Numbered from the stretch's first letter, positions 4,463 through 63,900 are shown. The stretch is DNA of 64,000 bases from Candidatus Omnitrophota bacterium (GCA_003140935.1 PLLJ01000034.1:79505-143504); one strand, 5' to 3'. Numbers and translations are program-made. The notes: generated by a model from the letters alone, not told the origin.

Positions 4463-4494
4463 AAGTGACCTTGTGATTTTTTTATATCGGAACT

Positions 4495-7406: not shown

Positions 7407-7918
7407 CGGAAAAGCTCGTATTGTCTGGCGGCAGAATGGCCGAACCACCGGTCTGTTAGAAAATTAAAGAGAGGCAAGAGCGCGGTTGTATAAAGCGCTG
7501 TCATCGTGATCATCCCCAAATAGTTCCCAACAAAGGATGGCGGCAATTCACCCGCATAGCTCACCAGAAGTCTTAAAGCCCCCGCGCAGAAGACAAAAAG
7601 GAACGTAATGATGAAATGGATCCCCGGCAACTGTCGCTCCATTTTTTGGATCAAGAAATCAAGCGCCGGAGCTAAAACGACCAGAAGGATCGCATCAAGC
7701 CCGATCAACCCGCCCCCCAAAAGGTCCCGCAGAAGCCCGGCCCAGAACGCGACATAAACGGTCTTGGTCGCCCCCCATTCAAAAGCAGCGTAGCAAATGA
7801 AAAGGTAAAGAAGGCTCGGATACGTGGAACGGATCTGAAAGGCCGGCATCACAGACCCATCCAGGACCGCAAGCAAAATAAAATAAAGAATTACTTTTGC
7901 GGAGACGAGACGATGCAT
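7403..7918 (-). CDS. mreD: rod shape-determining protein MreD
   Basis: 171-aa polytopic membrane protein between mreC and mrdA. Confidence 0.65.
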   Translation of the reverse strand: MHRLVSAKVILYFILLAVLDGSVMPAFQIRSTYPSLLYLFICYAAFEWGATKTVYVAFWAGLLRDLLGGGLIGLDAILLVVLAPALDFLIQKMERQLPGIHFIITFLFVFCAGALRLLVSYAGELPPSFVGNYLGMITMTALYTTALLPLFNFLTDRWFGHSAARQYELFR

Positions 7919-8724: not shown

Positions 8725-8797
8725 AAAGATCCTGAAAAAACGACTTCCTCAGATGTCAGGAGACTGCTTTCGGAGGGGCGCTAAAACAAAAAAACTT

Positions 8798-9850: not shown

Positions 9851-9949
9851 GGGCTTTGCCTTTTCGTATCTGTTGTGTGGGCTGGCGTTTATAGAAGCCG
9901 TAGTATATCGAAAGCCTTTTTCACTGTCAAACCAAAACAACCTCGTGTT

Positions 9950-11242: not shown

Positions 11243-11250
11243 GAAAAAAG

Positions 11251-11472
11251 TTATTTCCGGTGGACCCAAATTTTAACGATCGCGAGCTCTTCGAGGATCT
11301 TATTTTCTTTGGCGATAATGTCGTCTTGCTTTTTCTCGAGGGCTGTCAAACGGGTCTTGATATCGCTCAGATCACTTTTAGTTTGTTCTTCGAGGGCAAA
11401 AGCTCGTGAGGCAAACAGGATTCCGCCCAACAACAGGCATAGGAAAAAGAGCTTAAGCCTTGCGGATCTCAT
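11251..11472 (-). CDS. small membrane-anchored coiled-coil protein (FtsB/DivIC-like?)
   Basis: About 73 aa from MRSARLK: signal-anchor helix followed by the heptad-rich LEEQTKSDLSDIKTRLTALEKKQDDIIAKENKILEEL. The longer ORF-track version overlaps the upstream gene. Confidence 0.35.
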   Translation of the reverse strand: MRSARLKLFFLCLLLGGILFASRAFALEEQTKSDLSDIKTRLTALEKKQDDIIAKENKILEELAIVKIWVHRK

Positions 11473-12558: not shown

Positions 12559-12813
12559 CTAAGAAAGGTGCTTGCTGACGAGTTTGGTCATCTCGAACAT
12601 ATTGACGACCGCCTTGCCGCCGAACACAGCCTTGAGCGAGGCATCCGCGTTGATGTTGCGCTTGTTCGCCTGATCCTGGAGCTTATTCTTCTTGATGTAT
12701 TCCCAAAGCTTTTTCACGACTTCACTGCGAGGCATCGGCCCCTTACCGACCACCACCGCAAGTTCTGCACTTACATTCATCGGTTTCATAAACGCTGCGT
12801 TTGCTTTCGCCAT
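12559..12813 (-). CDS. SWIB/MDM2 domain-containing protein
   Basis: 84 aa: KPMNVSAELAVVVGKGPMPRSEVVKKLWEYIKKNKLQD matches the SWIB domain consensus (P..S.EL.. P.sR.eVvK.lWeYIK..nLQD). Confidence 0.75.
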   Translation of the reverse strand: MAKANAAFMKPMNVSAELAVVVGKGPMPRSEVVKKLWEYIKKNKLQDQANKRNINADASLKAVFGGKAVVNMFEMTKLVSKHLS

Positions 12814-26226: not shown

Positions 26227-26304
26227 TGGTAGCGCTAACGGGATTTAAACCCGTGTTTCTGCCTTGAGAGGGCAGCGTCCTAGATCAGGCTAGACGATAG
26301 CGCC
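26227..26304 (-). tRNA. tRNA-Glu (anticodon CTC), CCA encoded
   Basis: Minus strand: GGCGCTATCGTCTAGCCTGATCTAGGACGCTGCCCTCTCAAGGCAGAAACACGGGTTTAAATCCCGTTAGCGCTACCA. Glu-type D-arm (GTCTAG..AGGAC), anticodon loop CTCTCAA. Confidence 0.6.
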
Positions 26305-26434
26305 CTGATGAATCCCGCTTATCTTCTATATCGATCATCAGGACGCCTTTAGAAAACACGTGCCCTGTGACAGATCTAACCCACGATTGAAAAACAAGTT
26401 GCGGGGAGAATAAAAGCGCTAAAAACGAACTCGG

Positions 26435-26498
26435 TCCCAATTTTTATCAATTTTTGAGAATCTGAAATTGGGGCAGCACTTGTCACCATTTAAAAAAG
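26435..26498 (+). repeat. REP/MITE-like hairpin element, copy 3
   Basis: GTCCCAATTtttATCAATTTttgagaatctgAAATTGGGGCAgcaCTTGTCACCaTTTAAAAAAG. Confidence 0.6.
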
Positions 26499-26623
26499 CA
26501 AAATTAAGACGAGTGCAGTATAGCTTTGCCCCTATAGAATGTCAACGGACACACACCCCGGAAAAAACAGCCTAAAACAAGGGAGACTTTCCGGAACGAT
26601 CGAATGACTTGTAAAAGCGCTCT

Positions 26624-26902
26624 TTAAAAACGCCGATCCACCTTGTCTTTTAGGTCATACACGGATTTTTCAAGCATTTTCACGCGCTCTGCCATGAACC
26701 GGTTCGCCTGTTCCAAGTCGGAAACACGCCGTTCAAGCGTATCCGCACGGTCTTGCTTGAGAGTTTTTTCCATGTCGGAAAAATCCGTCGAAGTCCCGCT
26801 CATGCCCGTCCCCTTCGCTTCGTCCTCGGCCGCCCGCAAAAGCGGAAGTGCGATCGAAAAGAAGCACATCACCAAGATTGAAACTACCGCGAGTTTTTTC
26901 AT
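26624..26902 (-). CDS. small secreted coiled-coil protein (hypothetical)
   Basis: From MKKLAVVSILVMCFFSIALPLLRA (signal peptide), followed by a charged coiled-coil region. The ORF-track N-terminal extension is discounted. Confidence 0.4.
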   Translation of the reverse strand: MKKLAVVSILVMCFFSIALPLLRAAEDEAKGTGMSGTSTDFSDMEKTLKQDRADTLERRVSDLEQANRFMAERVKMLEKSVYDLKDKVDRRF

Positions 26903-27027
26903 AAGAGTCACCTCGTGCGGGAGTATAGCATAACCCAGGAGAACGCAAAATGGGAAACACGATGTGAAAAAACCGGGATTCGTCCCTCGCCTGGCTCTCA
27001 TTCAAATTTTTATTGAAAGCCAGTGCA

Positions 27028-27066
27028 GTACTGAATAACCATTAATTTTTATCAGTTATTCAGTAC
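27028..27066. repeat. perfect 12-bp inverted repeat (hairpin) downstream of xerD
   Basis: GTACTGAATAAC-cattaatttttatca-GTTATTCAGTAC. Confidence 0.5.
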
Positions 27067-27133
27067 GGGACTCAAAAAACGAAAAAACAGAAAGCGATTT
27101 GTGTCGAGGATCGAGTCCCCAGTCCCGCGCTTG

Positions 27134-28060
27134 TCAGCCTCGGGGATGAAATTTCGCGTGGATGGATTTGAGGCGGTTCCCGGAGACATGCGTGTAGATC
27201 TGCGTCGTAGAAATATCCGCATGGCCGAGAAGCTCCTGGACCACACGCAGGTCCGCGCCGCGCTCCAAAAGGTGGGTCGCAAAAGAATGGCGGAACGTGT
27301 GGGGGGTGATCTCCTTGGTGATACCGGCAAGCCGCGCATATTTTCCGATCATCTGCCACACAAATTGCCGCGTCAGCCCTTTCCCGCTTCGGCCCAGAAA
27401 AAAATGCTCGGTCTTGGCCTTCATCTTGGAACGGACCCTGGCAAGATAGGTCTGGCAAGCCGAGACCGCGACACTGCCGAGCGGTACAAGCCGTTCCTTA
27501 TCCCCTTTGCCGCGACACTTGATGAACTTATTATCCAGATACACATGCCCCAAAGGAAGTTCCGTGATCTCTGAGACCCGCATCCCGGTCGCGTAAAGAC
27601 ACTCCAAGAGCGCCAGGTCCCGTATCCCTCCGGGCTTTTTGACGTCTGGCGTCTTGAGAAGAGAGTCCATTTCCTGCGTGGTCAAAAAATGAGGCAGTTT
27701 TTTCCAGAGTTTCGGCGATTCCAGGACGCTTGTAATGTCGCTCTGGACATGGCGTTCTTTAGTGAGAAAACGGTGGAAAAGCTTGACCGAGACAAGTCCT
27801 CGGGCGATCGAGGAAGATTCGAGACCCCGTTTACTTTCCGCGTTCAGGAATTTCAGGATATGGGTCCGCGTGACCTTCGCCCAGTCTGAAACCTTTTCTT
27901 TTTTCAGGAAGGAGTCGTAACGCGCGAGGTCCTGCCGGTAGGCGTCCAGCGTATTCTGGGCCAGCCCTTTTTCCACGGAGAGATAGTTCAGAAACTCCTC
28001 GAAAAGGAGTTGGCTCTTGTCCTTAGGTTTCTCTGCGGTTACCGGTGCCGTATCCATCAC
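27134..28060 (-). CDS. xerD: site-specific tyrosine recombinase XerD-like
   Basis: R..HTFRHSFATHLLERGADLRVVQELLGHADISTTQIYTHV with the catalytic Tyr; N-terminal SAM-like core-binding domain; 308 aa. Confidence 0.8.
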   Translation of the reverse strand: MMDTAPVTAEKPKDKSQLLFEEFLNYLSVEKGLAQNTLDAYRQDLARYDSFLKKEKVSDWAKVTRTHILKFLNAESKRGLESSSIARGLVSVKLFHRFLTKERHVQSDITSVLESPKLWKKLPHFLTTQEMDSLLKTPDVKKPGGIRDLALLECLYATGMRVSEITELPLGHVYLDNKFIKCRGKGDKERLVPLGSVAVSACQTYLARVRSKMKAKTEHFFLGRSGKGLTRQFVWQMIGKYARLAGITKEITPHTFRHSFATHLLERGADLRVVQELLGHADISTTQIYTHVSGNRLKSIHAKFHPRG

Positions 28061-28156
28061 CCCAGGTATCGGCTAATTAGACTGGAGACTGGAGACAGAG
28101 GACTGGGAATCCTCATAGCGCACGGCAACCACAGCACTTTTATACTGACCGTGCGG

Positions 28157-28981
28157 TCATGGTTTTTTGCTATCGGTAGAAGAGCCGTAGGTGCGACACA
28201 GGGCTTTCTTTTCATCCGGATCGACAAAGAGCAGTTTTTTGTTGTCGTACCTCTTTCTCGCTAATTTTCTCGTCTCGGCCTGTCCGGGCGGCATGAGAGT
28301 CAGGGTATCCAGATATTCTGATTCACGGTCCGCGCAAACGGCGACTTCCATAAACTGGTTCAGGTCCGTGTCCAGATCTAAGACATCACCCCGTTTCATC
28401 CTAGCCAGCATGAGCGCTCTCAAAGCGTCAAAGTAATCCGTCATACCCTTTCTTTCGTACCGGGCCCTTTCGGAAAAAATCGCGGCTTTTCTAGAAAGAA
28501 GGCTTATGTCTCCGGGACTTCTTTTTAATTCCTCATCGATCTCTCTGAGGGCTTTTCCTCTCTCATTGCGAAGACCCAAATAATACCTGGCCCTGCGATA
28601 GACCTTCTTGGCGTCCCACACATACCATTTGGACTTTTTGGGAATAGCATCGTAGGCAATGATCGCGACCTCTTTGCCTTCCAAAAAAAACTGCCATATA
28701 TCGGGACGAGGCTCAGGCCCGTACTTGGGGGGTTCCGGGGATACAGCAAAATATTGATAGCCTTGGCCGACCACATATTCGCTGATCCTATACAGATCTT
28801 TGTTGGACATGCGGGGACTTGGAACCGGCCATTCGGTTTTCACCAGAGAATCATAGATGTCATAGCTGTCCAGGACCTTCACCTGGTCCTCCAAAGAATC
28901 CGCCCACAAAAGACCTGCCCCGGCAAAAAACAGCAGGACCATAAAACAAAATAATATTTTGCAATTCCCGGCAGGCATCAT
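28157..28981 (-). CDS. secreted hypothetical protein
   Basis: 274 aa with a signal peptide (ILFCFMVLLFFAGAGLLWA); no motif recognised. Confidence 0.45.
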   Translation of the reverse strand: MMPAGNCKILFCFMVLLFFAGAGLLWADSLEDQVKVLDSYDIYDSLVKTEWPVPSPRMSNKDLYRISEYVVGQGYQYFAVSPEPPKYGPEPRPDIWQFFLEGKEVAIIAYDAIPKKSKWYVWDAKKVYRRARYYLGLRNERGKALREIDEELKRSPGDISLLSRKAAIFSERARYERKGMTDYFDALRALMLARMKRGDVLDLDTDLNQFMEVAVCADRESEYLDTLTLMPPGQAETRKLARKRYDNKKLLFVDPDEKKALCRTYGSSTDSKKP

Positions 28982-29050
28982 TTAACTCCGGACTTTTTAA
29001 GTTCGAGCGAACGCGGGTGCTTCTTCCCTGGCCCGATCCCCTCACTTTGT

Positions 29051-30154
29051 TTATTCTTCAAACCGCACCGCCAAACCTTCGTCCAGCAATTCCTGGTTCA
29101 CATAGATGTAGCTGTCGGCCCGGACGGGAACGGCAGGTTCCTGGCGAAGCCGTTCTTGCTCATTGGGGACAAGGGCCACCCAGACATCCGCCAGGTAACG
29201 GTCGTACTTGTCGGACTTAACGGTCCTGATGAGAACGGGCGTTTTGGCTTTAAGGAGCCGCTCTTCGAGAAAAGCCTTGGCCTCCTGGCCGTCGGTGCTT
29301 ACGATCTCCGGAGCGTCCAGCCCGCGCAGACGCAGTTTCTGGACGGTGGTGAATCCGAACCCGAGCGGGACCGCGGCCTTGAGCGTGTCGCCGTCGATCA
29401 CTTCGATCACGTCCACCGGGTAGGTGTAAAGGGCCTCCTCGCCGGCTTGGGATTTTTGAAGCTTCCCTTTTTCAAACGTCACAATATCGCCTTCCTGCAA
29501 ACCGGTTGTGTTCTCCGGCTTGAAATAATTCGAAAACCCGAGGTCCAGCACCAGCGCGCCCGTAAATTCCCCGGCCGTGGCCTTGAGAACGCGATACGTT
29601 CCCGGGATTCCGGGACGGGCCTCGAGAGGGACTTCGGCTGGCAAAGGAGCCCCGGCAGGAACTTTCAGTTTCTTGATTTCCCGGCGAAGTTTTTTCTGCG
29701 ACCAGTGGTGGCTTTCGGCCTGCTTTGTCATTTGCTCTCGTTCTTTTGAATCATTCAAAGAAAGGAGTTCACGATAATGTGCCCAGCTCAATTTCCCCGG
29801 CGCCGGGGCAATTGGGTAAGCCCTGGCGAATCGAAGCATATAGCCTAGTTCCGTGTCACTCACACCCAGATCTTTGGCGAGTTTAAGAAGGACCTGTTTT
29901 CCGTACTCGGCCCGTTCCTGATGAAGCAGAATGTGTTCGTCGATGAGCTTCCCGGTCTCCCACGCCTCACGGACCTTTTCCTGCGCCACGGCCTGCGCAA
30001 CCCGCTTCTGACTTTCGGTCCTCACCTCACGGATCGCCGCCACCAGTTGGTCGTACGTCTCGACCTTCGACAGAGCCGCGGTTTGTGCCTGTAATGCTCC
30101 TGAACTTATGAGAACCAGAATAAGAAAAATACTAAAGATTTTTATTTTTTTCAT
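29051..30154 (-). CDS. secreted nuclease: DUF1016 (YhcG) N-terminal domain fused to staphylococcal-nuclease-like (SNase/thermonuclease) domain
   Basis: Signal peptide MKKIKIFSIFLILVLISSGALQA. YDQLVAAIREVRTESQKRV...ERAEYGKQVLLKLAKDLG...LGYMLRFARAYP matches the YhcG_N (DUF1016) consensus. The C-terminal VIDGDTLKA...LRGLDAPE...KSDKYDRYLADVWV matches the SNase fold motifs. Confidence 0.6.
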   Translation of the reverse strand: MKKIKIFSIFLILVLISSGALQAQTAALSKVETYDQLVAAIREVRTESQKRVAQAVAQEKVREAWETGKLIDEHILLHQERAEYGKQVLLKLAKDLGVSDTELGYMLRFARAYPIAPAPGKLSWAHYRELLSLNDSKEREQMTKQAESHHWSQKKLRREIKKLKVPAGAPLPAEVPLEARPGIPGTYRVLKATAGEFTGALVLDLGFSNYFKPENTTGLQEGDIVTFEKGKLQKSQAGEEALYTYPVDVIEVIDGDTLKAAVPLGFGFTTVQKLRLRGLDAPEIVSTDGQEAKAFLEERLLKAKTPVLIRTVKSDKYDRYLADVWVALVPNEQERLRQEPAVPVRADSYIYVNQELLDEGLAVRFEE

Positions 30155-30642
30155 GACTTCAGCCAATCCAGAGGCCGCCGCCCTGCCATTCGCATACACT
30201 GATCCTTCAGCTTCTTGAGCCGGAGGGTGATGATCTCAATGTCGCCGCTCGGATCGTCAAGCTCCAGGGTGCCTTCTTCGCTGATGTCCTTGATCTCGCC
30301 CGTCGCGATCATTAAATACTGGCGGCAATCGTGGATGAGCATTTCGAGCATATCCAGTGTCCCGTTCTCGGGATACACGGTAAGCGACCGCAGGTCCTTG
30401 CGCTTCCGGGACCAATCCGCGAGGATCCTGCCCGCTCTCCGACCGTCCTCCACCACGACCCAGAGCGCCACGCCCTGCCCGGTATAAAAGGAACGCCCGC
30501 CAAGCTCCCGGGAATCCGTGGCGGCGCGAATCCCGTGCTTGCGCAAATAAGCGATCGCCTTCCGCGCCCCGGCCAAGGTATGGAACCGTTCCAGATTACA
30601 CATTGGTACTGTTTCTTTTTCCTTCCTCATTTTCTTTCCCAT
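30151..30642 (-). CDS. hypothetical protein (possible DUF2007-like small alpha/beta domain)
   Basis: 163 aa; 4-bp ATGA overlap with the downstream nuclease gene suggests translational coupling. Confidence 0.35.
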   Translation of the reverse strand: MGKKMRKEKETVPMCNLERFHTLAGARKAIAYLRKHGIRAATDSRELGGRSFYTGQGVALWVVVEDGRRAGRILADWSRKRKDLRSLTVYPENGTLDMLEMLIHDCRQYLMIATGEIKDISEEGTLELDDPSGDIEIITLRLKKLKDQCMRMAGRRPLDWLKS

Positions 30643-30664
30643 TGCCGCCCCCCCTGTCTCTCTG

Positions 30665-30692
30665 TGCCGTATATCATATATGATATACGGCA
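30665..30692. promoter_or_regulatory. perfect 28-bp palindrome, candidate operator
   Basis: TGCCGTATATCATAT|ATGATATACGGCA, located 23 nt upstream of the 30151-30642 start codon. Confidence 0.4.
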
Positions 30693-30725
30693 GGATCCTC
30701 CACTTGAGGTTTACTTCTGACTTCC

Positions 30726-31580
30726 TTACGTGCCACCCGAATTACCAGACCCCTTTTTATTTAAAAAAAATGGTGTTCGTATTTCATCAAGAAAGGGAAC
30801 ATCTTCTAGTTTGACCTCGGGAGGGTTTATTGTATCGATATCTAAATATTTTTGACTAAAAACTAACACGTATGAATTTAAAAAAATGGAAAATGCGTGC
30901 GCAATCGATGTCACTTCATCGATCATTTTTTCAAACTTGCCTTTCAACTCATCTGGATCATTCCCTTGTATTCCTAAAGCCTGCAAAATCATGAGTTGGT
31001 GTGAAAGAACATAACAACAATTTCCATCTGTTTCCCCTAAGAAAATATGTGGGTCTTTGATAACATTAAATTTCTTTCGCTGATGGAAAGCTTGCTCCAA
31101 GTCATAGTGAAAACCAAATTTATTACGTAATCGTTTGAGCAAATTATTCTTTAAAAAATAATCCTGTATTTTTTCATTTGCTTTTTTAGCTTCACCGCTC
31201 ATTGCCGGCATAAAAGTATCGGCTAATGGCCTTAGCTTCAATTTCGTAATTTTCTTTTGCTTTGTTTTGAATGCTCTACACTTCAGCGGAGTACCTGGAT
31301 TTGCATAAAAGCCAAGCTGTATGAAATCAAAAGTTTCACAACACATACCAGCCAGCATCCTTATAAAACAAAATGATTGGGCAACTTGAGCGCTGGTTTC
31401 TGGAGAATTAGGATTATTTAGAGGCATCGCGGCAGTCGAATGCAAAATAGCCTTCTGGAGAACAGATATATCGTTAAGAATGCTCATAGCCCTTAAGAAA
31501 AACGCCGTTTCCTGCTGCGGAGCCTTTCCGAGCATATCAATAGGAATTTTTAATTCATAAAGAAATAATGATTTACCCAT
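30726..31580 (-). CDS. hypothetical protein in a strongly AT-rich (about 37 % GC) gene; possible HEPN-like RNase (R-x5-H)
   Basis: 284 aa. GC content drops sharply relative to the flanks. LRNKFGFHYD provides a single Rx4-6H motif; no other recognisable domain. Confidence 0.4.
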   Translation of the reverse strand: MGKSLFLYELKIPIDMLGKAPQQETAFFLRAMSILNDISVLQKAILHSTAAMPLNNPNSPETSAQVAQSFCFIRMLAGMCCETFDFIQLGFYANPGTPLKCRAFKTKQKKITKLKLRPLADTFMPAMSGEAKKANEKIQDYFLKNNLLKRLRNKFGFHYDLEQAFHQRKKFNVIKDPHIFLGETDGNCCYVLSHQLMILQALGIQGNDPDELKGKFEKMIDEVTSIAHAFSIFLNSYVLVFSQKYLDIDTINPPEVKLEDVPFLDEIRTPFFLNKKGSGNSGGT

Positions 31581-36385: not shown

Positions 36386-36460
36386 TGGTCGGGGTGATAG
36401 GATTTGAACCTACGACCTCTCGGTCCCGAACCGAGCGCACTACCTCTGTGCTACACCCCG
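36386..36460 (-). tRNA. tRNA-Pro (anticodon CGG), CCA encoded
   Basis: Minus strand: CGGGGTGTAGCACAGAGGTAGTGCGCTCGGTTCGGGACCGAGAGGTCGTAGGTTCAAATCCTATCACCCCGACCA. Anticodon loop TTCGGGA. Confidence 0.85.
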
Positions 36461-36591
36461 ACGATATTCATATGCAATGATTTTATCTGTTCATTCAGTC
36501 CGCAAAAGGCGGACCCGGATTTTCCGCCAGACAGCGCGGCGGACCTGTCCCAAAGCGCTGTCGGACGGACCCGCCATCGCTTTTTGGCGGG

Positions 36592-36648
36592 GAACCTACG
36601 ACCTCTCGGTCCCGAACCGAGCGCACTACCTCTGTGCTACACCCCGAC
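36592..36648 (-). repeat. partial tandem duplicate of the tRNA-Pro(CGG) 5' portion (acceptor/D/anticodon arms, no T-arm)
   Basis: About 57 nt identical to 36404-36460 (aacctacgacctctcggtcccgaaccgagcgcactacctctgtgctacaccccgac), separated from the intact gene by about 130 bp. Confidence 0.7.
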
Positions 36649-36747: not shown

Positions 36748-38502
36748 TTAATCCACCGCCAGATCGGCGGTGGCGGCAACCTGCTCGGGAGTGAGCTTGG
36801 GAGAAACGCTTTCACGAGAAGGTTGCGATCCTTGGGTCATAAGCGCGGCCTCCATGACTTCCTTAAAAACAGGCGCGGCAACGGTCCCGCCGTAATAAAG
36901 AGGCCGTGCTTCATCCAGTACGACCACCATGGCATAACGGGGATTTTCCGCCGGCGCGAATCCCACAAAGGTAGACATGAACGCTGAATGGGAGTAGCCT
37001 CTGCCTCCCGGAAGGATCTTTTGCGCGGTGCCGGTCTTGCCGCCGACCGGAATGTCCGGGATCTTCGCCTTCGTGCCGGTGCCTCTTTCCACCACCTGCG
37101 TAAGGATTCTTCGCATGGTCGCGGCCGTTTCGGGTGTGATCACCCGCTTTTTCACAATAGGTTTTTTCTCCTTGAGGATGACTCCCGCAGAATCCTGGAC
37201 CTTGGAAATAATATAAGGTTTTACAAGATTTCCCCCGTTCGCGATCACCGACATCGCAGTCACCATCTGCAGGGCCGTGACCATCACCTCTTGCCCCATC
37301 GGAATGTTGTACGGCGAGGTCTTGGACCATTGAGAGGGCGGCCTCGTATACCCGGGCGCCTCTCCGGCCAGGTCGATACCGCTCCAGGTCCCGAACCCGA
37401 AACCTGTCACATAATTTTGGAATTTCTGCGCCCCCATCTTGAGCCCGATCTTCACGGCCCCGATATTGCTCGACTTTACGATCACTTCCTCCATAGGCAT
37501 CATGCCATAAGGGTGGACATCGTGAAGCACTTTGATGCCATAATTCCACTTTCCATTTTCGCAATTAATGACCGTTTCCGGGGTGACCGTGCCCTCATTC
37601 AGCGCGCCGCTCGCGGTCACGATCTTGAATACCGAGCCGGGTTCGTACATGTCCGTGATCGCACGGTTGCGTTTCGCGTCAGGACCCGCCTGGGAGTAAT
37701 GGTTGGGATCAAAACCCGGTTGGTTCGCCATCGCCAAGATTTCGCCCGTTTGGGGATCCATCACGATCGCCCATGCACCCTTGGCCTTCCACTGTTTGAA
37801 GGCCTGTTCAAGCGCCTTCTCGGTTAAGTACTGAAGATGTTGATCGATCGTCAGCACGACACGGTTCCCGTCGACCACGGGAAGACTTTTGATTTCGAAG
37901 GCTTTGATCTCACGTCCCTTGGCGTCGCGCTGGGTCACGCGCTTGCCGGGCCTTCCGCGAAGATCGCCATCCATAGACCGTTCGAGCCCCTCCACTCCCT
38001 GATTGTCCACCGTAGAAAATCCGAGCACCTGCGCCAGCATGGTTCCCTGGGGATAGAACCGTTTGTATTCTTCAAGAATACCCAAATCGGGGCATTGGAG
38101 TTTCCTGATCTTTTCGGACTCCTCAAAAGTGACGCGCCGTTTGAGCCACACGAACGATTTATCCCGGCTCAATCGCTCCATCACCCATTTAGGGTCCAGG
38201 CCCAGGATCTTCGCGATCTCCCGACTGAGGCCTGCGCGTTCATCGTCTTTCAGAGCGCGAGGTACCGCATAAATGGACGGGATCTTGAGATTGGTAACAA
38301 ACTCTTTTCCGTGGCGGTCCGTGATAGGCCCCCGCAAGGGCGGCACATCGATCGTCAAATAATGCTGGCGATGCGCAAGAGTAAGAAGTGAGGACTGATG
38401 GAACCAGGTCAGCTGGACGATCTGATAGATCACGAGACCAAAAAGAATGAACAGAACGATGTAGAGGAACCAAAACCGACGCGGCGAAAGCAACGCACGC
38501 AT
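36748..38502 (-). CDS. ftsI: peptidoglycan D,D-transpeptidase FtsI (PBP3-type class B PBP)
   Basis: N-terminal TM, dimerisation domain, and transpeptidase motifs GSVFK, SSN, KTGTAQK. Position after ftsL and rsmH. Confidence 0.8.
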   Translation of the reverse strand: MRALLSPRRFWFLYIVLFILFGLVIYQIVQLTWFHQSSLLTLAHRQHYLTIDVPPLRGPITDRHGKEFVTNLKIPSIYAVPRALKDDERAGLSREIAKILGLDPKWVMERLSRDKSFVWLKRRVTFEESEKIRKLQCPDLGILEEYKRFYPQGTMLAQVLGFSTVDNQGVEGLERSMDGDLRGRPGKRVTQRDAKGREIKAFEIKSLPVVDGNRVVLTIDQHLQYLTEKALEQAFKQWKAKGAWAIVMDPQTGEILAMANQPGFDPNHYSQAGPDAKRNRAITDMYEPGSVFKIVTASGALNEGTVTPETVINCENGKWNYGIKVLHDVHPYGMMPMEEVIVKSSNIGAVKIGLKMGAQKFQNYVTGFGFGTWSGIDLAGEAPGYTRPPSQWSKTSPYNIPMGQEVMVTALQMVTAMSVIANGGNLVKPYIISKVQDSAGVILKEKKPIVKKRVITPETAATMRRILTQVVERGTGTKAKIPDIPVGGKTGTAQKILPGGRGYSHSAFMSTFVGFAPAENPRYAMVVVLDEARPLYYGGTVAAPVFKEVMEAALMTQGSQPSRESVSPKLTPEQVAATADLAVD

Positions 38503-38505
38503 TTT

Positions 38506-38898
38506 TTAGGAGGAAAGATCTGTTTTTGCCTGGGCCGTTTGGATCCACCGGCCAAGAAAACTCGTCACCTTGGAAGAAAGAGTGCTCGTGACCTTGGGTC
38601 CCGACGAGGCGGGAATCACAAGCTCGGAAACGGGCGGCACTTCCACCACTTGGATCTTGTTAGGAATCGCTAATCCCATGTCATGATGTTTCATTTTCGC
38701 TTCTAGCAGGCGGGGGGCCCTCAACTGGTCGACCTTGAATTGAAATTTTCGAAGTATCTCTTGTTTCTCGGCCAACGCGCGGGAACTCGTATGGATATCG
38801 AAAGAGACTAGAACGGAAGCAATTTGTAAATGCACATAGAAAAGCATTGCGCAAGTCAGGATGGCTATAAGCACTAAAATCTTTCCGCTGCCTTTCAT
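38506..38898 (-). CDS. ftsL: cell division protein FtsL-like
   Basis: 130 aa: short cytoplasmic N-terminus, one TM, coiled coil. Conserved position between rsmH and ftsI. Confidence 0.55.
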   Translation of the reverse strand: MKGSGKILVLIAILTCAMLFYVHLQIASVLVSFDIHTSSRALAEKQEILRKFQFKVDQLRAPRLLEAKMKHHDMGLAIPNKIQVVEVPPVSELVIPASSGPKVTSTLSSKVTSFLGRWIQTAQAKTDLSS

Positions 38899-39803
38899 GA
38901 TATTTTTTCGATCACTCTCAGTTTGGCGCTTCTTGCTCTTGGATTATTCAATATTTCCGAACGGTTTGCAACTACTGGTTTACGAAAAATCAAACTTCCG
39001 CGCTCCTCGTCGTCCCATTTCCGGAACTGACGCTTCACGATCCTGTCCTCCATCGAATGAAAGCTGATAATTCCGAGCCGCCCGGTCTTAGTGAGATGAT
39101 CGAACGCCGCGGTCATACCTTCCTTGAGCGCTTCCAACTCATCATTGACTCCGATCCGGAGAGCCTGGAACACTTTGGTCGAGGGGTGACGCCGTGCCCA
39201 GGATGGCCTCTGCCCTTTTTTAAATCTCATATGGGCGGGCAACGCTTGTTCCAGCGTCTGGTTGAGATCTTCGATCGTACGGATGGGTTGTTGCCGCCGT
39301 CTTTCTACAATGACACGGGCAAAACGGCGTGAGTTGCGTTCTTCGCCATAATGATAGAAAAGATCCGCAAGCTCGGCTTCAGACATTTGAGCGAGCAGTT
39401 CTGAAGCCTTAAGACCGACTTCCGGGTTCATCCGCATATCCAATTCCCCTTCCGTTTGGAAACTGAAACCGCGCTTCCCATCCGCCAATTGTTCCGACGA
39501 GGTCCCGATATCTAAGAGTACTGCGTCGAATGCCGCCACTCCCAGTCCCGAAAAGACTTTCTCTAAATTCCTGAAATTCTCGTGCACCAACGTGACCCGC
39601 GGATCCTTTTGGAACAACACACGGCAACGCGCGATCGCCTCAGGATCCTGATCAAATCCGATCAATTTTCCTGAGGGACCTATTACCCCGAGGATCGCCT
39701 CCGCATGCCCTCCGCTCCCGAGGGTCCCATCCATCACAACAGCCCCGGGTTTTAAAGCGAAAGACCCAAGAACTTCCTGTAAAAGAACGGGGTTATGCCG
39801 CAA
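38895..39803 (-). CDS. rsmH: 16S rRNA (cytosine1402-N4)-methyltransferase RsmH (MraW)
   Basis: VMDGTLGSGGHAEAIL, DQDPEA and LLDIGTSSEQL motifs. Confidence 0.9.
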   Translation of the reverse strand: MRHNPVLLQEVLGSFALKPGAVVMDGTLGSGGHAEAILGVIGPSGKLIGFDQDPEAIARCRVLFQKDPRVTLVHENFRNLEKVFSGLGVAAFDAVLLDIGTSSEQLADGKRGFSFQTEGELDMRMNPEVGLKASELLAQMSEAELADLFYHYGEERNSRRFARVIVERRRQQPIRTIEDLNQTLEQALPAHMRFKKGQRPSWARRHPSTKVFQALRIGVNDELEALKEGMTAAFDHLTKTGRLGIISFHSMEDRIVKRQFRKWDDEERGSLIFRKPVVANRSEILNNPRARSAKLRVIEKIS

Positions 39804-40131
39804 AACTAAGGATCGCCTCTTCTTCTGTCGAATAACTTTCCATCAAACCATTGACCCCGATCATCTGGAAAGTCTTTTCGACTTCGGGCCGCAAATTGCA
39901 CAATTTGATATCCCCTTTTTGTTCACGCACCTTGCGCAAACGGTCTACCAAAATGCCGACGCCCGCCAATTCCACATGTTTCGTATCTTTCAGGTCCAGC
40001 AAGAGGCGCTTGTGGTTTCTGTTAAGCAGACGGTTCATGCGACCTTTCATTTTGATCATGCTAAGAGCATCGAGATCTCCGTTGAAACGCAACACATCCA
40101 CCCCGACCTTCGTTCTGGCATGATAAACCAT
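39793..40131 (-). CDS. STAS-domain anti-sigma-factor antagonist (SpoIIAA-like)
   Basis: 112 aa; DLKDTKHVELAGVGILVDRLRKV carries the STAS fold signature. Confidence 0.65.
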   Translation of the reverse strand: MVYHARTKVGVDVLRFNGDLDALSMIKMKGRMNRLLNRNHKRLLLDLKDTKHVELAGVGILVDRLRKVREQKGDIKLCNLRPEVEKTFQMIGVNGLMESYSTEEEAILSFAA

Positions 40132-40144
40132 GATGACCCCTTTC

Positions 40145-40582
40145 TTATTCCGATACTAATTTTTCTGCGAGTTCTTCAAAGTGGTTCTTATGATTATCAA
40201 AAAAGCTTTGCCATTTTTCTTTTGCCCAGATTTCAATACGACTTGAAACTCCCACGATCATGACGTCCGTCTTAATGTCGGCATAAGTCTTAAGATAGTC
40301 CGGGATGAGGATCCTCCCCTGCTTATCGCAAACAACTTCGGAAGCACCCGAGAAAAAAAGCCGGTTGAAAGTTCTGGATTCGGCTTTGGTAAAAGGCATA
40401 TCGCGAAACTTTTTTTCTTCCGTCTTCCATTGTTCTTCGGTGAAAACAAACAAACATTGATCAAGGCCGCGTGTGATAAAAAAGCGCTCTACATAGCGCT
40501 CCTTGAAAATCTCGCGGAATTTGGCAGGGATCATCACGCGGCTTTTGGTATCGATCACATGTCCGAATTCACCGTAAAACAT
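40145..40582 (-). CDS. mraZ: transcriptional regulator MraZ
   Basis: 145 aa; duplicated DxxxR motifs in the contexts IDTKSRVMIPAKFRE and CDKQGRILIP. Confidence 0.85.
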   Translation of the reverse strand: MFYGEFGHVIDTKSRVMIPAKFREIFKERYVERFFITRGLDQCLFVFTEEQWKTEEKKFRDMPFTKAESRTFNRLFFSGASEVVCDKQGRILIPDYLKTYADIKTDVMIVGVSSRIEIWAKEKWQSFFDNHKNHFEELAEKLVSE

Positions 40583-40603: not shown

Positions 40604-40674
40604 TCCCACTTCATCCCACTTTATCCCACTTCATTATCGACGGCAGTATATATTTCCCTTAATATCGTGTCAAT
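40604..40674 (-). promoter_or_regulatory. mraZ promoter (TTGACA-17-TATACT) with three MraZ-box direct repeats (GTGGGA at 10-bp spacing) in the leader
   Basis: Minus strand: TTGACAcgatattaagggaaataTATACTgccgtcgataatgaAGTGGGAtaaaGTGGGAtgaaGTGGGAatatgaaaggaaagaaaatccATG. Confidence 0.65.
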
Positions 40675-40833: not shown

Positions 40834-41550
40834 CTAGTTTTCGAAGTAGAGAATGCGGGAACAGTTCTCGCAAACAATGATCTGCTCGCCGAGCCGGATC
40901 TCATTGATGAGTTGCGGGCGCAACTTCATCTGGCAAGCAGCACAAACTTCACCGTTTACAACGGCAAGAGCCAGTCCCTGCTTTTTGAGAGCGATCCGGC
41001 TGTAAAGCTCCCCAAGTTCGGGCGGCAATTCCGCGACAGATTCTTCGCGCTGTTTTTTCAAAACTGCAAGACGTTCCTGCAAAGTCTTTTCTTGACCGGC
41101 CATTTCGTTATCCCGGTCCTGGAAAGATGTAGTGATGGATGAGAATTTTTCTTTTTCTTTGCGGGTCTCTTCTTTCGCCGCATCCACTTCATCCATAATA
41201 TGAATGATCCCTTCCTCGAGAAGCGAATTATCGGCCTTCAAAGAAGCGATCTCCTGTTGAAGCGCGGCGTATTCCTTGTTCGTTTTCACCTGGGAGAGTT
41301 GCCCGTCGAGCTTTTTGATTTGCGTTTCTTTCTGCATAAGTTCTATTTCTTTTTCTTTCTGTTTCAACTGTATATCCTTGAGGGATTTCTCCAGTTCATG
41401 GAGATGGACCTTTTCGAGTTCCAATTCGGATTTGAGCTGAGCCCGCTGCGCAGGGATTTCTTCCAGAAGAATATGAGTGTGATGGATCTCACTATCCAAT
41501 TGCTGGGCTTTTTTCAAGGCATCAAGATTCTGGGCAATAGGGCCTGTCAT
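40834..41550 (-). CDS. zinc-ribbon domain protein with N-terminal coiled coil (DUF164 / zf-RING_7 family)
   Basis: Long coiled coil with the family-typical NKEYAALQQEI block and a C-terminal CAACQMKL...CENCSRIL C4 ribbon. Confidence 0.65.
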   Translation of the reverse strand: MTGPIAQNLDALKKAQQLDSEIHHTHILLEEIPAQRAQLKSELELEKVHLHELEKSLKDIQLKQKEKEIELMQKETQIKKLDGQLSQVKTNKEYAALQQEIASLKADNSLLEEGIIHIMDEVDAAKEETRKEKEKFSSITTSFQDRDNEMAGQEKTLQERLAVLKKQREESVAELPPELGELYSRIALKKQGLALAVVNGEVCAACQMKLRPQLINEIRLGEQIIVCENCSRILYFEN

Positions 41551-41678
41551 AAGTGCAGCGATTATAGAAGAGATGGGAGGCACCATCAAGGACGAAATAC
41601 GAAACGCCTGTGCAAGTCACACTACGCATAACGTCTCTTTCGCCACCCTACTGAAAAGCCGCACTCCTCTTTAATATT

Positions 41679-45931: not shown

Positions 45932-48900
45932 TTACGCCGCAGTGCGGATCTGGAGATATCCTTGGATCGCTTGAAGGACGGCCTCCAGCAGGGTCCCGTG
46001 ATCATACTCGGAAGGTTTATGAATGTTGAACCGGTCCGTTTCCCACTGTTTGTCTAATGCCGCATAAAGCACGGTCGTGAGGGCTGCAGCGAGAGTCTTC
46101 ATGTCACCCGCGTCTTCCGTCACCCAACGGCTTCCAATCCCCTTGCGATAGGCGACCTGGTCGAAGGATCCGTTGTTACGCGCCACCAAAGCGTCTACCT
46201 TTTGAGTTCCTTTCAACAAGAACGGGTCCTCCTGCCGAGAAGAGACGATCTTGAGTTGATCGGGTGCCAATGTGATCCCCTCCTGTTTGGCTAGACCGCG
46301 GATCTTTTCACTGATGTCTTGAGTCGTTTTGTCGTCAGTATCGATGTTCATCAAAAGACGTCCACGCAATGATACAAGAGCTCCCAACACCACCGTAAAA
46401 TGTGTGATCAACTCCGACCGGTCATTCTCCGTAAGGCCCGTTAAATGAACATGGACCCGAGGTCCTTCAAGAGAAGTTCCGGACGGAAGCGCGGCGCCGG
46501 CCGGCACCGCTTTTTGGAACGTCTCCAAAACCTTCGCCAGCCGTTCATTCGAGATCCCCGAAGCCGCCGCTTGCATGAGAACTTTCTGTGTCATTTGCCC
46601 CACGACCCAACCCTGCGCGGCTTCCAACCCCGACAGTATCACTTGCCGGCCTTCTACAGTCACGGAAACTTGCTTGGGAAGATAAAACGCGATCCCCGAA
46701 ACGGAGAAAATGGTGTCCACGCTATCTGCGGCATCAACGACAGCATCCCGCGGAAACTCCGGTACGTCCAGGGAAAATGCCTTATTCGAAGCCGCAAGCT
46801 GATCTCTTGCCACAGCCGTTGGTCCCCGGAGTTCTGAACGACTCGGTACGCTTTCCGCCTTCTCGAACACGAACTCCTCTTGATGGAACTGCAATCCTTT
46901 CGCCGCCTGGATCATGAATGCTAAACCTTCTTCCAAATGAAAGAGTTCGCGACGGTGGCGGGGACCGATCGCGTCCCTGGATCCGGCCTGAATGCGGTCC
47001 ACCAACTCCCCGGACTCGAGGCGCTCCGTCTTGTGCCATCCCTTCAGATATCCTTCAATATACTCCGGCCGTTTTTCTCTCGCGGCGGGAGGATTCCACG
47101 GCTCACGCGACCATTCGAGGATCAGATCCGGAAATGTCTCCACGATCCCGCGAAATCCCGTGTACCCCGCGGGGATCTCGTCGAGAAGGCGCCGGACCGC
47201 GAGCGTCCAGACCTCTGTGGTCTTTTGGATATAACCCCGGATCGCCTGGTTATCATGTTTCCCACGAAGCGGATCATACCGATAGAGGGACGTTTCCCAT
47301 CCGTTATAGATTTCCTGAAATGCCACGGCTTCTCCCGCCCACACATTCAAGCGATTGCGTAAAGGCGTCAAAACCTTCCGGTCCGTGACAGAACCTTTAT
47401 AAGCTGGACGTGAGTCGAACCCTGCAAAGATCCGGTCCGCGATCTCCTTGGCCGACCGGATGCGTTCCGGATCCGCGTACCGGTTCTTTTTCATGTTTTT
47501 CTCGAGAGCCGTCAGTTCCTTAAACAATAAATTGAAATTCGAGTAGAAAAAGGGCGGCTTCCAGGTCCCGGTCATTCGTGCGCGGATAGCCTTCAAATCC
47601 AACATTCCGATCGCGTTCAAAAGCGCGGCGTTCTTTTCAAGAAGTCTGCCCTGCAAAACCTCCAGGTCCCGCGCATTTTCCTCCGTCCGCACTTCCGAGC
47701 GTTTCCCTTCCCGTGAGACCTTATCTCTTATGTCGGAACGTGCGGGTGTTTTCACCAGATCGCTTAGAGAGGTGACAATATGGTCGGCTATTTCACGAGA
47801 GCGGGCGGCCTCTTTGGCGGTCGCCGGCATTCCCACGAGCCAGAATTGCCGTCTAACTTCCGGTTTGATCCTCACTGCCCGATCAATGGCTTTGGAACTA
47901 TCATCAACGAAAATGGCTTTGGCTTCGGGAGGCAAGTCGCCTAGCGCCTTTGCCAGGACACTTATTTTTTCATCCAACGTGTTGACAAAAACGAGATCCT
48001 TTTCCGGATCCTCGAAATATTTCAGCAATCCGGTTTTTTGAATAATGGGTAAACGGAATTCTTTTTTCGATGTCGAAATGATCCGGACCCGCTTTCCCTG
48101 GTCTTTAGCTGCCTCAAAAAATTCCATCACCCCCGGCATAAGCAATCTTTGTCTCACTTCCTGTTCCGGCAATTGAAGAATCGAACGCAGGTCTTCATCT
48201 CTTCTAGTTTCGTAAAGTTTCAGGAAATACCCGGCAGGATCATTTATGCCAGGGAAAACAAGGTCTTTCCGTTCATTGAATAGAGTCTTTAAATTTTTTT
48301 CAGTAGATTCGCCGAGTCTTTGGTCATAAAACGCGGTTCCCTCCCGCAGCGCCTCGGGATCCGGCTTAAACCCTGAGGGATCCGCGATTTGATTGAAGAT
48401 CATTGAGTAAATATAAGCCGCGTGTTTCCGGTTTAAACCAATGGTGTCCAAAACAACCCCGTCCAGGTCCAAGTAAACATCCGTTATTTCATCGAACGAG
48501 AACGGCGCCTGATGATCGCCCCGCATCTCGGAACGCCGGGGCCAATGAAGAAAATACATCTCTGGGTTTTTAAAAATGGGTCTTAAGAAATCGCCGCGGA
48601 CAGGTTTCTTTAATAGATGAACCGGATGTTGTTCTTTTAACTCCCCGAGGATTTTATCTCCCACCTCATCGCCCATAAAAACGATCGGAACTCTCTCTAA
48701 ACCCGGCATCTTGACAGCCTCCAAGATCCACTCCGGCCCTGTCATTCCGGACATGGGGACTTTAGTAAGAATAGCGTCCGGTACCCCTTGGTTGAGCGCT
48801 TGCAGAGCCGCTTCCCCCGAAGATACCGCCGTGACCTTAAAACCATCTAAATTGAGCAACAGTTCCAGAGCTTCTAAAGCACTTTCCCTGTCATCAACGA

Positions 48901-60900: not shown

Positions 60901-63900
60901 CTTCGGAACGAACGGAAAAAGGTTGTCGCCCTTCTGTTTCCCGCACCGCTTGCCGCGAACCCTGCGAACCGGCGACGGGTCTTTTTTTCAAAAATAGATA
61001 ACGCCCGAGAAGATCGCCCACCGTCCACAAGGCACTGACAATCGTTCTAAGATCTCGTGGTTCAGACGGCTTTTCATCATTGACCCGCCGATAAGCCCGG
61101 TCATTCCACGCCACTCTTCCATCGAGCGGCACAACGTCCCAACCCGGGAATGGCATTCCATGCCGCGATGAATCATAGTCATAGAGGAGCACCTGCCCGG
61201 TAGGCTTAACCTCACGGCGCAAAAGTTGAACGACGTCCTGATTTGCGGTCCAAAGTCCCTGAGTCGTTGTCGCGCGAGGCATCGCGCCGGTCCAGAAGTA
61301 AAAGATCAGGTCGGCCGTCTTGAGGTGATCCTGCCGCACGGCCGGATCAAAAAAATCCCCCTCAACAAAAACGGCGGGAGCAAGGTCCATCTCGCCCGCA
61401 AGTCTGCTTTGAACGGCGAGGCCAACCTGGATCAGCTTCGGATCATGTTCAAAACCAACAGCTCGAGCACCCATGAGCGCCGCCAGGAGCACAACCCTGC
61501 CATCCCCGCTGCCAAGGTCCACAACCCGCTTGCCCGGACCAATCCCGAGGGATTGCAATCGTGCCCAAATTTCATGCAAAGGCGTCGGCTTGTAGATACC
61601 AGCGCTCGTCGGAGCCACGCCGGAACTCATGCCCACTCTCGCAAGCTCCTCTTCAATGATTTGCTCGACCCTGTCAAGCAGGACGGTGACCTCATCCGCC
61701 AGCAGAGTGCCTCCCCTCGCTTCGGAACGGGCTTCATCGGTTTTTGTGACAGCGGCAGAGGTTTTCATCAACGCGTCCCCACCAGCGATCAAATCTCTTC
61801 GCACGCGGTATATCTTGGGGTTATCAAAATCCCAGATCACGAAATCGCACTGCGCGATCAGCGCGTTGAGCAATTCATTTTTATCTCTTTTGAATTTCTC
61901 TTTTGATAGCGCATCTTCAGGTTCTGGAAGACTGAATATCGGTCCTAAAACAGCCACGGTGACGAGTCCCAGACGCCTGCCATTTTTTAATTCATTCACA
62001 TTGTCATCGAATAAAATCCCGGGGCCTTCTCGCTTGCTCATCTCCGTTCTAAACTCTTTTTCCTTGTCACCGACCGTGCCAATGTAAAATGGGATGCCTT
62101 GCGTGTCCGGAGGCATACTGATTTTTAAGGAACCGCGATTTAAATATCCGAGCGCTTCCGGAGAACTGCTGATAATGGCAATGTGACGCTCTTTTTCCTG
62201 GATCCTGTTCAAAAAATGTCTTGCGCCACGCACGAGGGCCGAAGGATTCGAGTCGATCAAGTCCTGCTCTTTATCGAAATACAGTTTCTGATAACGCGTC
62301 AAAACATCCGGAGTAACTTCCCATCCTCCGGCGCGAACGGCGTCCCGCAGGTCGATCTCTGAAAGAATCCTCTCAGACAAAGCGTTTCCCTTGATTGGCG
62401 GGATGCCGTATTCCGCCATTTGTTGAAGCGCAAATACCAGCGCTTCCCGGTGGGCATTTTCAATATACAAACTGGTATGGTGAAGCGTCTCATCCACGTC
62501 GAAAAGAAAGGTCTGGTATGTGCGAAGCCATTTCTCCAAAGATTCGGCAGGATCTTCGACGAGAAGCGGATGGCCGGCGAGTTCTTTTTTAACCCTTCCA
62601 TTTGAATCTTGCTGGATCGCCCAGAAAAAATCCCGGGGCGATGATTCGGCCGCAACAGGCTCGGCTCGCACCTCGGAGCGCTTGCCCTCCGTATCCCCTT
62701 CCTTTTGTCGATGATTTCTCTCGGGATTGAAACCTGCCATTCCTTGTTTTAATTTTTCTCTGACAGTATTCACTAAGTCAACGGAAACATTCATCGAATG
62801 GGTTATTAATTCATTGGTTTCTCCTCCTAAAATTTTGTCTGCTATTTCACGCTCAGTTCCCTGGTCAAGCGAATTCAGGATATCTGTTAATCGTTTATAA
62901 AATTCACGCCGGTAGGTATACCAATAAGGATCGATCTCGGTTTTGACCAGCCCCCTTTTTCCGTCGACCCATCCAGCTTGCAAAACAGGATTGCCGAAAA
63001 CCGAGAACGATTCGACCGTTTCAAGATCAATCATGATCGGCATTGCCTTCCGCCGGCCTGCCTGATCCTTGGCCCCAGGAACCCAACGCACCATGGGCCC
63101 TATCTGGAAGGCCTTGTAAAAAGTATCTTTCCCTTCCTCCAGACGGACCACGCACTGGACCCACCCATTGACACGGTCCGCCGCGATCACTGTCGCCGTC
63201 CATTTTTCGCCTGGTTTCGGGTAAGACCCCAGAACGGACCAGGTATAGATGTAATTATGGATATAAAAACGGACCGCTCCATAGCCATTCAAAAGTCCTA
63301 CTTTCAAACCCGGCAACCGGGCAACATCCTGAACATTCACTTCGGTTTTGCTGCCGATGGCTTCGATAATCCTTGAGAGCGGCCGGAGAACGGCCCGTTG
63401 GCTCAGCATACGCACTTCCACATTCGGCCGCCCTAAATTGCTTTTCAACATTTTGGATTCCGGCGAGACCTGGAAATAAAATATCTTAGGCTCGGCTCCA
63501 GACTTCTCTAAACTGATGCCGAATTGATACACACCATCCTTGACTCCCCCGTCGATAAGGTAGCCCGTGCGGTCTGCATAAGGCTTAAAGCTCAGGGTAT
63601 AGGCATAGCTTGCATCGCCCGGCACAGGATAGAAGACAAAATCCCCCTTAACAGGCGTTGGTTTGCCAAGCAATATTCTCTTGAAAGACCGTACCTTGTC
63701 GGGATTCTGGACCCAATCATAATCCGAGGGTTTCATCACAATTTCTGAAAGCGTATACAGCCCCGGACGCTCTAAAACCTCAAACACAGTGTCCGGCTCA
63801 CCTGATTTCGCTCCAACCCGCGCTTCCAAGGGACGACGATGGGGACCAACCTGAAACGTTTTTGGGAACGTTTCGCGACCTTGTTTGCGGAATTCGACAT

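Follow-up and report, generated by a model that had tools for sequence, protein, structure and literature searches.

A STAS-domain gene without the phospho-acceptor serine lies between mraZ and rsmH in a conserved division operon of Candidatus Omnitrophota

In most bacteria the division cluster begins with mraZ and rsmH, two genes whose adjacency is near-universal. We analysed a 64,000-nucleotide stretch of DNA from a Candidatus Omnitrophota bacterium (GCA_003140935.1 PLLJ01000034.1:79505-143504; the window, with positions counted from its first letter) in which a gene for a small STAS-domain protein of the SpoIIAA type separates mraZ from rsmH. The operon runs along the minus strand and has the following features:

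40645..40673, minus strand: sigma-70-type promoter, TTGACA-17 nt-TATACT, agreeing with the consensus at 11 of 12 positions; the best site in the region
40604..40631, minus strand: MraZ operator of three AAGTGGGA boxes with a 10-bp period and 6-nt spacers, just downstream of the -10 hexamer
40582-40145, minus strand: mraZ, 145 aa (PF02381, E=3e-35; TIGR00242, 137 bits against a cutoff of 98)
40131-39793, minus strand: STAS gene, 339 nt, encoding a single-domain, SpoIIAA-like protein of 112 aa with Leu55 at the phospho-acceptor position (PF01740, E=2e-16)
39803-39793, minus strand: 11-nt STAS/rsmH overlap, TTGCGGCATAA, with the rsmH TTG within the last STAS codons
39803-38895, minus strand: rsmH/mraW, 16S rRNA m4C1402 methyltransferase, 302 aa, TTG start (PF01795, E=4e-95)
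38898-38506, minus strand: ftsL-like open reading frame (ORF), bitopic, 130 aa, with an N-terminal transmembrane segment, a coiled coil and an APRLLExxxxxxxMGL motif
38502-36748, minus strand: ftsI, division class-B penicillin-binding protein, 584 aa, PBP_dimer and Transpeptidase domains; last gene of the module

An earlier reading of the window made from the sequence alone (the sequence-only reading) had proposed this gene order, followed by a tRNA-Pro gene and unrelated genes, and both the ORFs and the Pfam matches agree with it, at the coordinates it gave. Successive genes are separated by +13, -11, -4 and +3 nt. The PF01795 match of RsmH begins at residue 2 of the TTG-initiated protein (residues 2-301, profile positions 3-309), indicating that this TTG is the real start and that the ATG further downstream, which some gene callers select, is not. 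The ATGA start of the following ORF overlaps the rsmH stop codon. This ORF has no Pfam match and matches NCBIfam FtsL_Actino weakly (E=0.049); the ORF at the same position matches DivIC (E=9e-6) and FtsL (E=0.008) in the distant relative L088, and DivIC weakly in locus L091. We regard it as a putative ftsL on the basis of position, topology, the weak profile match and these two relatives. Because a separate elongasome cluster with its own pbp2 (mreB-mreC-mreD-pbp2-rodA, 9940-4616) is present in the window, the penicillin-binding protein of the module is the division paralogue.

The five-gene operon is conserved across a deep Omnitrophota clade. A scan restricted to one genome per species identified 49 Omnitrophota loci with a STAS homologue, which directly follows mraZ in every case (49/49); rsmH, an ftsL-like ORF and ftsI come next wherever the contig reaches. 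The same module is present in 11 further contigs, including deep branches at 37-55% STAS identity, with one deeper branch, seen in Pfam-labelled gene tables, at 43-55%. The STAS homologues carry Candidatus Omnitrophota names, and the operon region of the window is identical to a 967-kb Joint Genome Institute metagenome contig, 3300037089 Ga0334820_000002. The synteny comparison that the sequence-only reading had called for thus finds the module in all species-representative loci as well as in the additional contigs. As in the canonical cluster of division and cell wall (dcw) genes in Escherichia coli and Bacillus subtilis (mraZ-rsmH-ftsL-ftsI-murE-murF-mraY-...-ftsZ), mraZ comes first, behind a promoter with GTGG boxes, and rsmH is followed by ftsL and ftsI in that order. 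Unlike in the canonical cluster, rsmH does not immediately follow mraZ, the two being split by the 339-nt STAS gene in all of the approximately 60 related loci, and the cluster stops after ftsI.

The STAS protein is among the slowest-evolving products of the region. Median identity to the window is 79% for STAS, 79% for MraZ and 71% for FtsI, and 66%, 58% and 57% for a CT398-like protein encoded upstream of mraZ (described below), RsmH and the FtsL-like protein, respectively; in relatives whose RsmH identity drops to only about 50%, the STAS proteins still share 66-73%. Ratios of nonsynonymous to synonymous substitution rates (dN/dS; Nei-Gojobori, pairs with dS below 1.5) are 0.025 for STAS and 0.027 for MraZ, followed by FtsI (0.060), the CT398-like protein (0.061), RsmH (0.076) and the FtsL-like protein (0.093). 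The N-terminus and the Shine-Dalgarno sequence of the STAS gene are also conserved. The dN/dS of STAS, together with its conserved position, shows that the gene encodes a real protein under very strong constraint.

The signals that govern the operon are preserved along with its gene order. Direct reading of the sequence places GTGGG at 40629-25, 40619-15 and 40609-05, and these boxes match the published MraZ box consensus (PMC12957436). In the 46 related loci with enough sequence upstream of mraZ, both promoter hexamers and their spacing are kept and three (A)AGTGG[G/T] repeats, spaced as in the window, are present throughout, in flanking sequence that diverges. A Shine-Dalgarno sequence of its own, GAAAGGGG, precedes the STAS gene, which lies 13 nt past the mraZ stop codon. 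At its other end the STAS TAA (39795-39793) falls inside codons 3-4 of rsmH, whose TTG occupies 39803-39801. The sequence-only reading had located this overlap correctly but reversed its polarity, pairing the start of STAS with the 3' end of rsmH when it is the STAS stop that overlaps the rsmH start. Essentially all loci of the main branch have an 11-nt TTGNNNCAT[AG]A overlap, and a deep branch has an overlap of 8 nt. Conservation of the promoter and of the MraZ boxes, together with an rsmH TTG embedded in the 3' end of the STAS gene, makes it almost certain that STAS shares a transcript with the division genes and is coupled to them in translation; co-transcription had already been suggested from the sequence alone.

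Profile and structure comparisons place the STAS protein within the anti-sigma-antagonist superfamily, as the sequence-only reading had it. The match to PF01740 spans residues 6-106 (profile positions 5-106 of 106; 59.9 bits, cutoff 22.6), and that to the superfamily model TIGR00377 passes its cutoff (57.7 bits, cutoff 53.45). The protein falls short of the cutoff for the SpoIIAA equivalog TIGR02886 (56.5 bits, cutoff 114.75) and for MlaB NF033618 (17.3 bits, E=0.005, cutoff 90); with scores this far under the cutoffs, we rejected an MlaB-like protein or a SulP fragment as its identity. An AlphaFold2 model (predicted local distance difference test score, pLDDT, 79) has the element order b1-b2-a1-b3-a2-b4-a3-b5-a4 of the STAS fold, and Foldseek aligns it to 1TH8_B, 1VC1, 4HYL and 6M36 with TM-scores of 0.80-0.85, SpoIIAA, RsbV and TM1442 being among the matches. 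The family profile likewise returns SpoIIAA, TM1442 and RsbV as the best solved relatives. In a representative library of 1.84 billion proteins 11 clusters match at E<=1e-30, several of them multi-domain proteins in which the scores of several STAS domains are summed; with so few, the family is compact. We rejected these multi-STAS fusions as informative relatives, because they rank high through the addition of three STAS domains. Among them, the 1,438-aa protein P0136 of Ca. Krumholzibacteriota, and likewise P0128, P0130 and P0152, combine an RsbW-like HATPase_c_2 domain, HAMP, SpoIIE/PP2C and HTH domains and three tandem STAS domains, an architecture that looks like an all-in-one partner-switching protein.

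The residue that defines phosphorylation control in this superfamily is missing. Leu55 of the window protein, in the beta3-alpha2 loop, aligns with SpoIIAA Ser58 (RsbV Ser56). Of 164 family members, 162 have Leu at the acceptor position, one has Phe and one has Tyr; none has Ser or Thr there, and the +1 residue is Ala in 159. Conserved Ser or Thr residues at other positions are S24, T87 and S109. The invariant blocks F16-L20, V53-V62 and R81-E83 coincide with the three elements through which RsbV contacts RsbW, namely the beta2-alpha1 loop, the Ser56 loop and helix alpha3 (PMC7340262). A further invariant patch, R34-L35-L36-N37-x-N39 (RLLNxN), is specific to the family and lies outside these canonical contact elements.

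A cognate kinase is also missing from the neighbourhood. A profile built from RsbW-like HATPase_c_2 domains found no matching ORF in the whole 64-kb window, nor within 6-10 kb of the STAS gene at any of 64 Omnitrophota-type loci (0/64). As a positive control, the same profile was run on 28 Planctomycetota loci whose antagonists bear the serine; in 24 of them it recovered a HATPase_c_2 ORF directly after the STAS gene. A tblastn search for PP2C domains in the window and at the loci gave a single match at chance level (E=0.66). In the STAS family, then, the acceptor residue and the adjacent kinase are both lost.

These properties set the protein apart from the antagonists that it otherwise resembles. 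It shares with SpoIIAA and RsbV its length of 112 aa, the beta-alpha STAS fold, the GxLD loop, the xxG-[LV]-G loop and a conserved alpha3 region, and differs from them in the absent serine, in the absence of an adjacent kinase, phosphatase or sigma factor gene and in its location between mraZ and rsmH. Antagonists of the Planctomycetota (approximately 30% identity; for example loci L053, L061 and L077) belong to the same Planctomycetota-Verrucomicrobiota-Chlamydiota (PVC) superphylum and share its overall length and the KLCN[LI]RPE motif, but they keep a FLSSAAL serine loop and, in 24 of the 28 control loci, the downstream kinase gene, and none is found beside mraZ. SypA, RbaV and BtrV offer a precedent in that each is a single STAS domain, active when unphosphorylated, whose target need not be an anti-sigma factor; all three differ from the Omnitrophota protein in retaining the conserved serine and a cognate kinase or phosphatase (PMC8256260).

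The protein thus comes from a well-known signalling family, minus the residue and the kinase that define that signalling. In characterised antagonists the unphosphorylated form is the binding-competent state. We tentatively favour, as possible rather than probable, an explanation in which the STAS protein is a phosphorylation-independent, abundance-dependent binding module, and we infer that its partner is most likely MraZ or RsmH. On this proposal one sigma-70-type promoter, with three MraZ boxes in the 5' leader, would drive all five genes, and a SpoIIAA-type STAS protein would have been released from kinase and phosphatase control. The hydrophobic residue at the acceptor position would leave it permanently unphosphorylated, so that its activity would be set by its abundance, and its abundance by MraZ-regulated (repressed) transcription. 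With the rsmH TTG lying within the STAS stop region, the amount of STAS protein would also be tied to the output of RsmH. Binding to the partner would use the canonical STAS face, made up of the beta2-alpha1 and beta3-alpha2 loops and helix alpha3. The protein might then modulate, from within the operon, either expression of the division genes or the function of RsmH, and would not be the end point of a phospho-relay.

Three observations place the likely partner in the head of the operon. The position of the gene has been kept through deep divergence, independently of the break downstream of ftsI; the protein evolves in step with MraZ; and residual covariation is highest, if weak, with RsmH and MraZ. 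When shared phylogeny was removed from the distance covariation, the partial r was 0.34 for STAS-RsmH and 0.22 for STAS-MraZ, and at most 0.09 for STAS with FtsL, FtsI or the CT398-like protein, compared with 0.53 for the known FtsL-FtsI pair.

Several points weigh against this proposal. The mirror-tree covariation is weak and carries no significance test, and the same analysis returns an unexplained value of 0.54 for CT398-FtsI. Partner binding, the identity of the partner and the direction of the effect are inferred. No STAS protein is known to bind an AbrB-type regulator or a methyltransferase. Tight packing is common to all genes of the operon, and the coupling to rsmH therefore does not point specifically to a complex. 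The kinase search covered the window and flanks of 6-10 kb, with a profile trained mostly on Planctomycetota sequences, and a GHKL partner could be encoded elsewhere in the genome.

In a more specific version, which we consider unlikely, the STAS protein would be a dedicated partner of MraZ, a co-repressor or anti-repressor of toxin-antitoxin-like or AbbA-like type that tunes binding to the three-box operator, or else would relay an antagonism between MraZ and RsmH. The analogy is one of architecture alone: as in AbrB-fold toxin-antitoxin pairs and in AbrB/AbbA, a small protein is encoded directly downstream of an AbrB/SpoVT-fold autoregulator, and Pfam labels MraZ 'putative antitoxin-like'. 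It differs from those systems in that the STAS protein has no homology to a toxin or to AbbA. Were this version true, it would be the first time that a protein input to MraZ is identified, and the first time that a STAS domain is seen to have been recruited for direct control of a transcription factor in place of an anti-sigma kinase.

The main rival, in our view somewhat unlikely, is that the protein is a stoichiometric antagonist of a GHKL anti-sigma factor (RsbW/SpoIIAB-like) encoded elsewhere, a natural counterpart of SpoIIAA S58A that cannot be phosphorylated. Greater expression of the division operon would sequester more anti-sigma factor and release more of some sigma factor, coupling a transcription programme to the operon. 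The score above the TIGR00377 cutoff is in keeping with this, as are the closest matches in sequence and fold (SpoIIAA, RsbV and TM1442) and the coincidence of the three RsbW-contacting elements with the invariant blocks; outside the clade, its nearest relatives are Planctomycetota antagonists of the canonical kind, encoded beside kinases. SpoIIAA S58A, moreover, has been crystallised in complex with SpoIIAB (1TID/1TIL); the alignment shows the DASG sequence of 1TID, in which Ser58 is mutated to Ala. It is opposed by the lack of any kinase-like ORF in the window or the 64 loci, and by the chemistry of the interface, which would be altered by a bulky Leu at the acceptor position and by Glu83, which in a hand alignment takes the place of the RsbW-contacting Arg84 of RsbV.

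It is quite improbable that the protein instead senses a nucleotide or other small molecule, or serves an ATPase or transporter as an accessory subunit in the way MlaB serves MlaF, and so connects division with a metabolic or envelope signal. Binding of nucleoside triphosphates by STAS domains has been proposed (Aravind & Koonin, as cited in PMC8256260). The weak MlaB profile match and the invariant RLLNxN patch outside the canonical contact elements could be read in the same way. However, the MlaB score is far below its cutoff (17 bits against 90), and the conserved neighbourhood contains no ABC transporter genes (mlaF and mlaE included).

The sequence-only reading had proposed a partner-switching input into division-gene expression from a SpoIIAA-like antagonist. 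In the canonical, phosphorylation-driven form, such an antagonist would convey an external signal through a kinase and a phosphatase. Membership of the STAS/SpoIIAA family and the existence of partner-switching systems in other PVC bacteria, for example Chlamydia (PMC8256260), speak for such a canonical switch, which is nonetheless very improbable and is largely refuted by the census of acceptor residues (no serine in 164 of 164, with Ala at +1 in 159) and by the kinase-neighbour control, neither kinase nor phosphatase having been found nearby, unlike at the Planctomycetota loci. Nor does the location of the gene suit an upstream input: the STAS gene is downstream of the MraZ operator, and is more naturally an output of the operon or a modulator within it.

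That the ORF is spurious or a recent, functionless insertion, an outcome that the sequence-only reading tied to its absence from close relatives, is suggested by nothing but its unusual position and has virtually no chance of being right, being refuted by its presence at the same place in every relative examined, close and distant (approximately 60 loci), by its higher identity than RsmH, its conserved N-terminus and Shine-Dalgarno sequence, and the purifying selection measured above.

The STAS gene offers a handle on how MraZ is controlled and on why an rRNA methyltransferase travels with it. A whole clade holds a third protein between mraZ and rsmH that evolves as slowly as MraZ. The hypothesis that it provides is of a phosphorylation-independent STAS protein whose target is MraZ, RsmH or a sigma-factor switch. 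Searches of a literature library turned up nothing on STAS genes within dcw clusters, nor on anti-sigma systems in Omnitrophota, and the insertion in the dcw head points to an undescribed regulatory add-on to the division genes.

The second departure from the canonical cluster is its end at ftsI. The sequence-only reading had noted that no mur, ftsW or ftsZ genes follow ftsI, and the ORF scans support this: none was found after ftsI or among the long or unassigned ORFs of the window, a scan that left aside short ORFs overlapping larger genes. A run of overlapping genes at 13.5-26 kb was considered as a mur/fts block and rejected, being a purine-biosynthesis and housekeeping block, and an EPSP-synthase-family gene at 9950-11269 was rejected as murA because it is aroA. 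The mreBCD-pbp2-rodA genes are the only other cell-wall genes found in the window. In the 52 loci with at least 1 kb of sequence downstream of ftsI, no MurE-like sequence follows it, with the exception of L088. The genes past ftsI vary by lineage and include tRNA-Pro/DUF6485, RmuC, glutathione synthetase (on the other strand), DUF192 and ribonucleotide reductase.

The exception is informative. L088 (GCA_030603975.1, JAUVWU010000066.1, 1-4476) has the order mraZ-STAS-rsmH-ftsL(DivIC-like)-ftsI-murE; its STAS protein is 37% identical to that of the window and has Tyr at the acceptor position, and its rsmH starts with an ATG 4 nt past the STAS stop codon, with no overlap. This arrangement may be the ancestral state, with the insertion present before the cluster broke. 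Because L088 keeps murE after ftsI, the STAS insertion and the break after ftsI are separate events. The end of the cluster at ftsI that the sequence-only reading described is therefore real, but is distinct from the insertion with which it had been grouped, and fits the known fragmentation of dcw clusters in the PVC superphylum (PMC12283558, PMC5147048). For Ca. Omnitrophota, strong conservation of the dcw genes has been reported (PMC12283558), and Omnitrophica OLB16 is a case in which FtsZ was found (PMC5147048). At the level of the phylum, these reports support a split cluster, with the remaining dcw genes at other places in the genome, over a loss of those genes. The independence of insertion and break bears on how the supposedly constrained dcw order has eroded in this superphylum.

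Three features flank the module:

40834..41589, minus strand: CT398/CdsZ-like coiled-coil zinc-ribbon gene (PF24481 and PF02591; NCBIfam CdsZ, E=6e-24, below cutoff)
36592-36648, minus strand: truncated tRNA-Pro copy, whose 57 nt perfectly repeat the 5' part of the complete gene (Rfam, 30.8 bits; repeat finder)
36460-36386, minus strand: complete tRNA-Pro(cgg) (ARAGORN; Rfam, 70 bits), the downstream boundary of the module

The CT398-like gene is separated from mraZ by the 251-nt promoter region and probably lies outside the operon. It is found upstream in about 41 of the 49 species-representative loci and, with further contigs such as L083-L087 and L090 included, in nearly all loci with enough upstream sequence; the exceptions are L048, where it is approximately 1.9 kb away, and L081 and L091, for which none is listed. 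CT398/CdsZ relatives bind sigma-54 in Chlamydia and Helicobacter. A few genes upstream of the CT398-mraZ pair, several lineages encode a ParA/MinD/MipZ-like ATPase that carries a fused CBM48/AMPK glycogen-binding domain (L081 6863-7858, L083 5944-7044, L085 3303-4499, L087 3155-4330 and L090 3234-4466) and is followed by two unannotated genes; it is absent at that position from the lineage of the window.

Downstream of ftsI, the truncated tRNA-Pro copy and tRNA-Pro(cgg) are followed by a DUF6485 gene and a short-chain dehydrogenase (SDR) gene, and a promoter-like site is present at 36738-36710, upstream of the tRNA-Pro copies. The duplicated segment, 36406-36462, recurs at 36592-36648, 186 nt upstream of the complete gene. 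The near-identical contig L078 contains three copies of this partial segment, compared with two in the window, indicating that the copy number varies between strains.

Several other features of the window stand out. A giant minus-strand ORF (45932-63985, >6017 aa) runs off the end of the window; its counterparts on L078 and L079 encode 7,831-7,854 aa, with faint Pfam matches only (Response_reg, HEAT, Hydrolase, Epimerase). At 26227-31580, after tRNA-Glu(ctc), lie a tyrosine recombinase gene of the XerC/D type (27134-28060), a gene for a DUF1016/SNase nuclease (29051-30199) and three ORFs without a Pfam match. The guanine-cytosine content of this segment is patchy (0.44-0.57), L078 and L079 differ here, and it may be a small mobile or variable island. 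The elongasome cluster at 4616-9940 is complete (mreB-mreC-mreD-pbp2-rodA) and is followed by tRNA-Pro(tgg) at 4387-4463 and a Maf-like septation-inhibitor homologue at 2961-3599. Finally, positions 12559-12813 encode an 84-aa stand-alone SWIB/MDM2-domain protein (PF02201, E=8e-31), a domain that is mostly eukaryotic and is also reported in chlamydiae.

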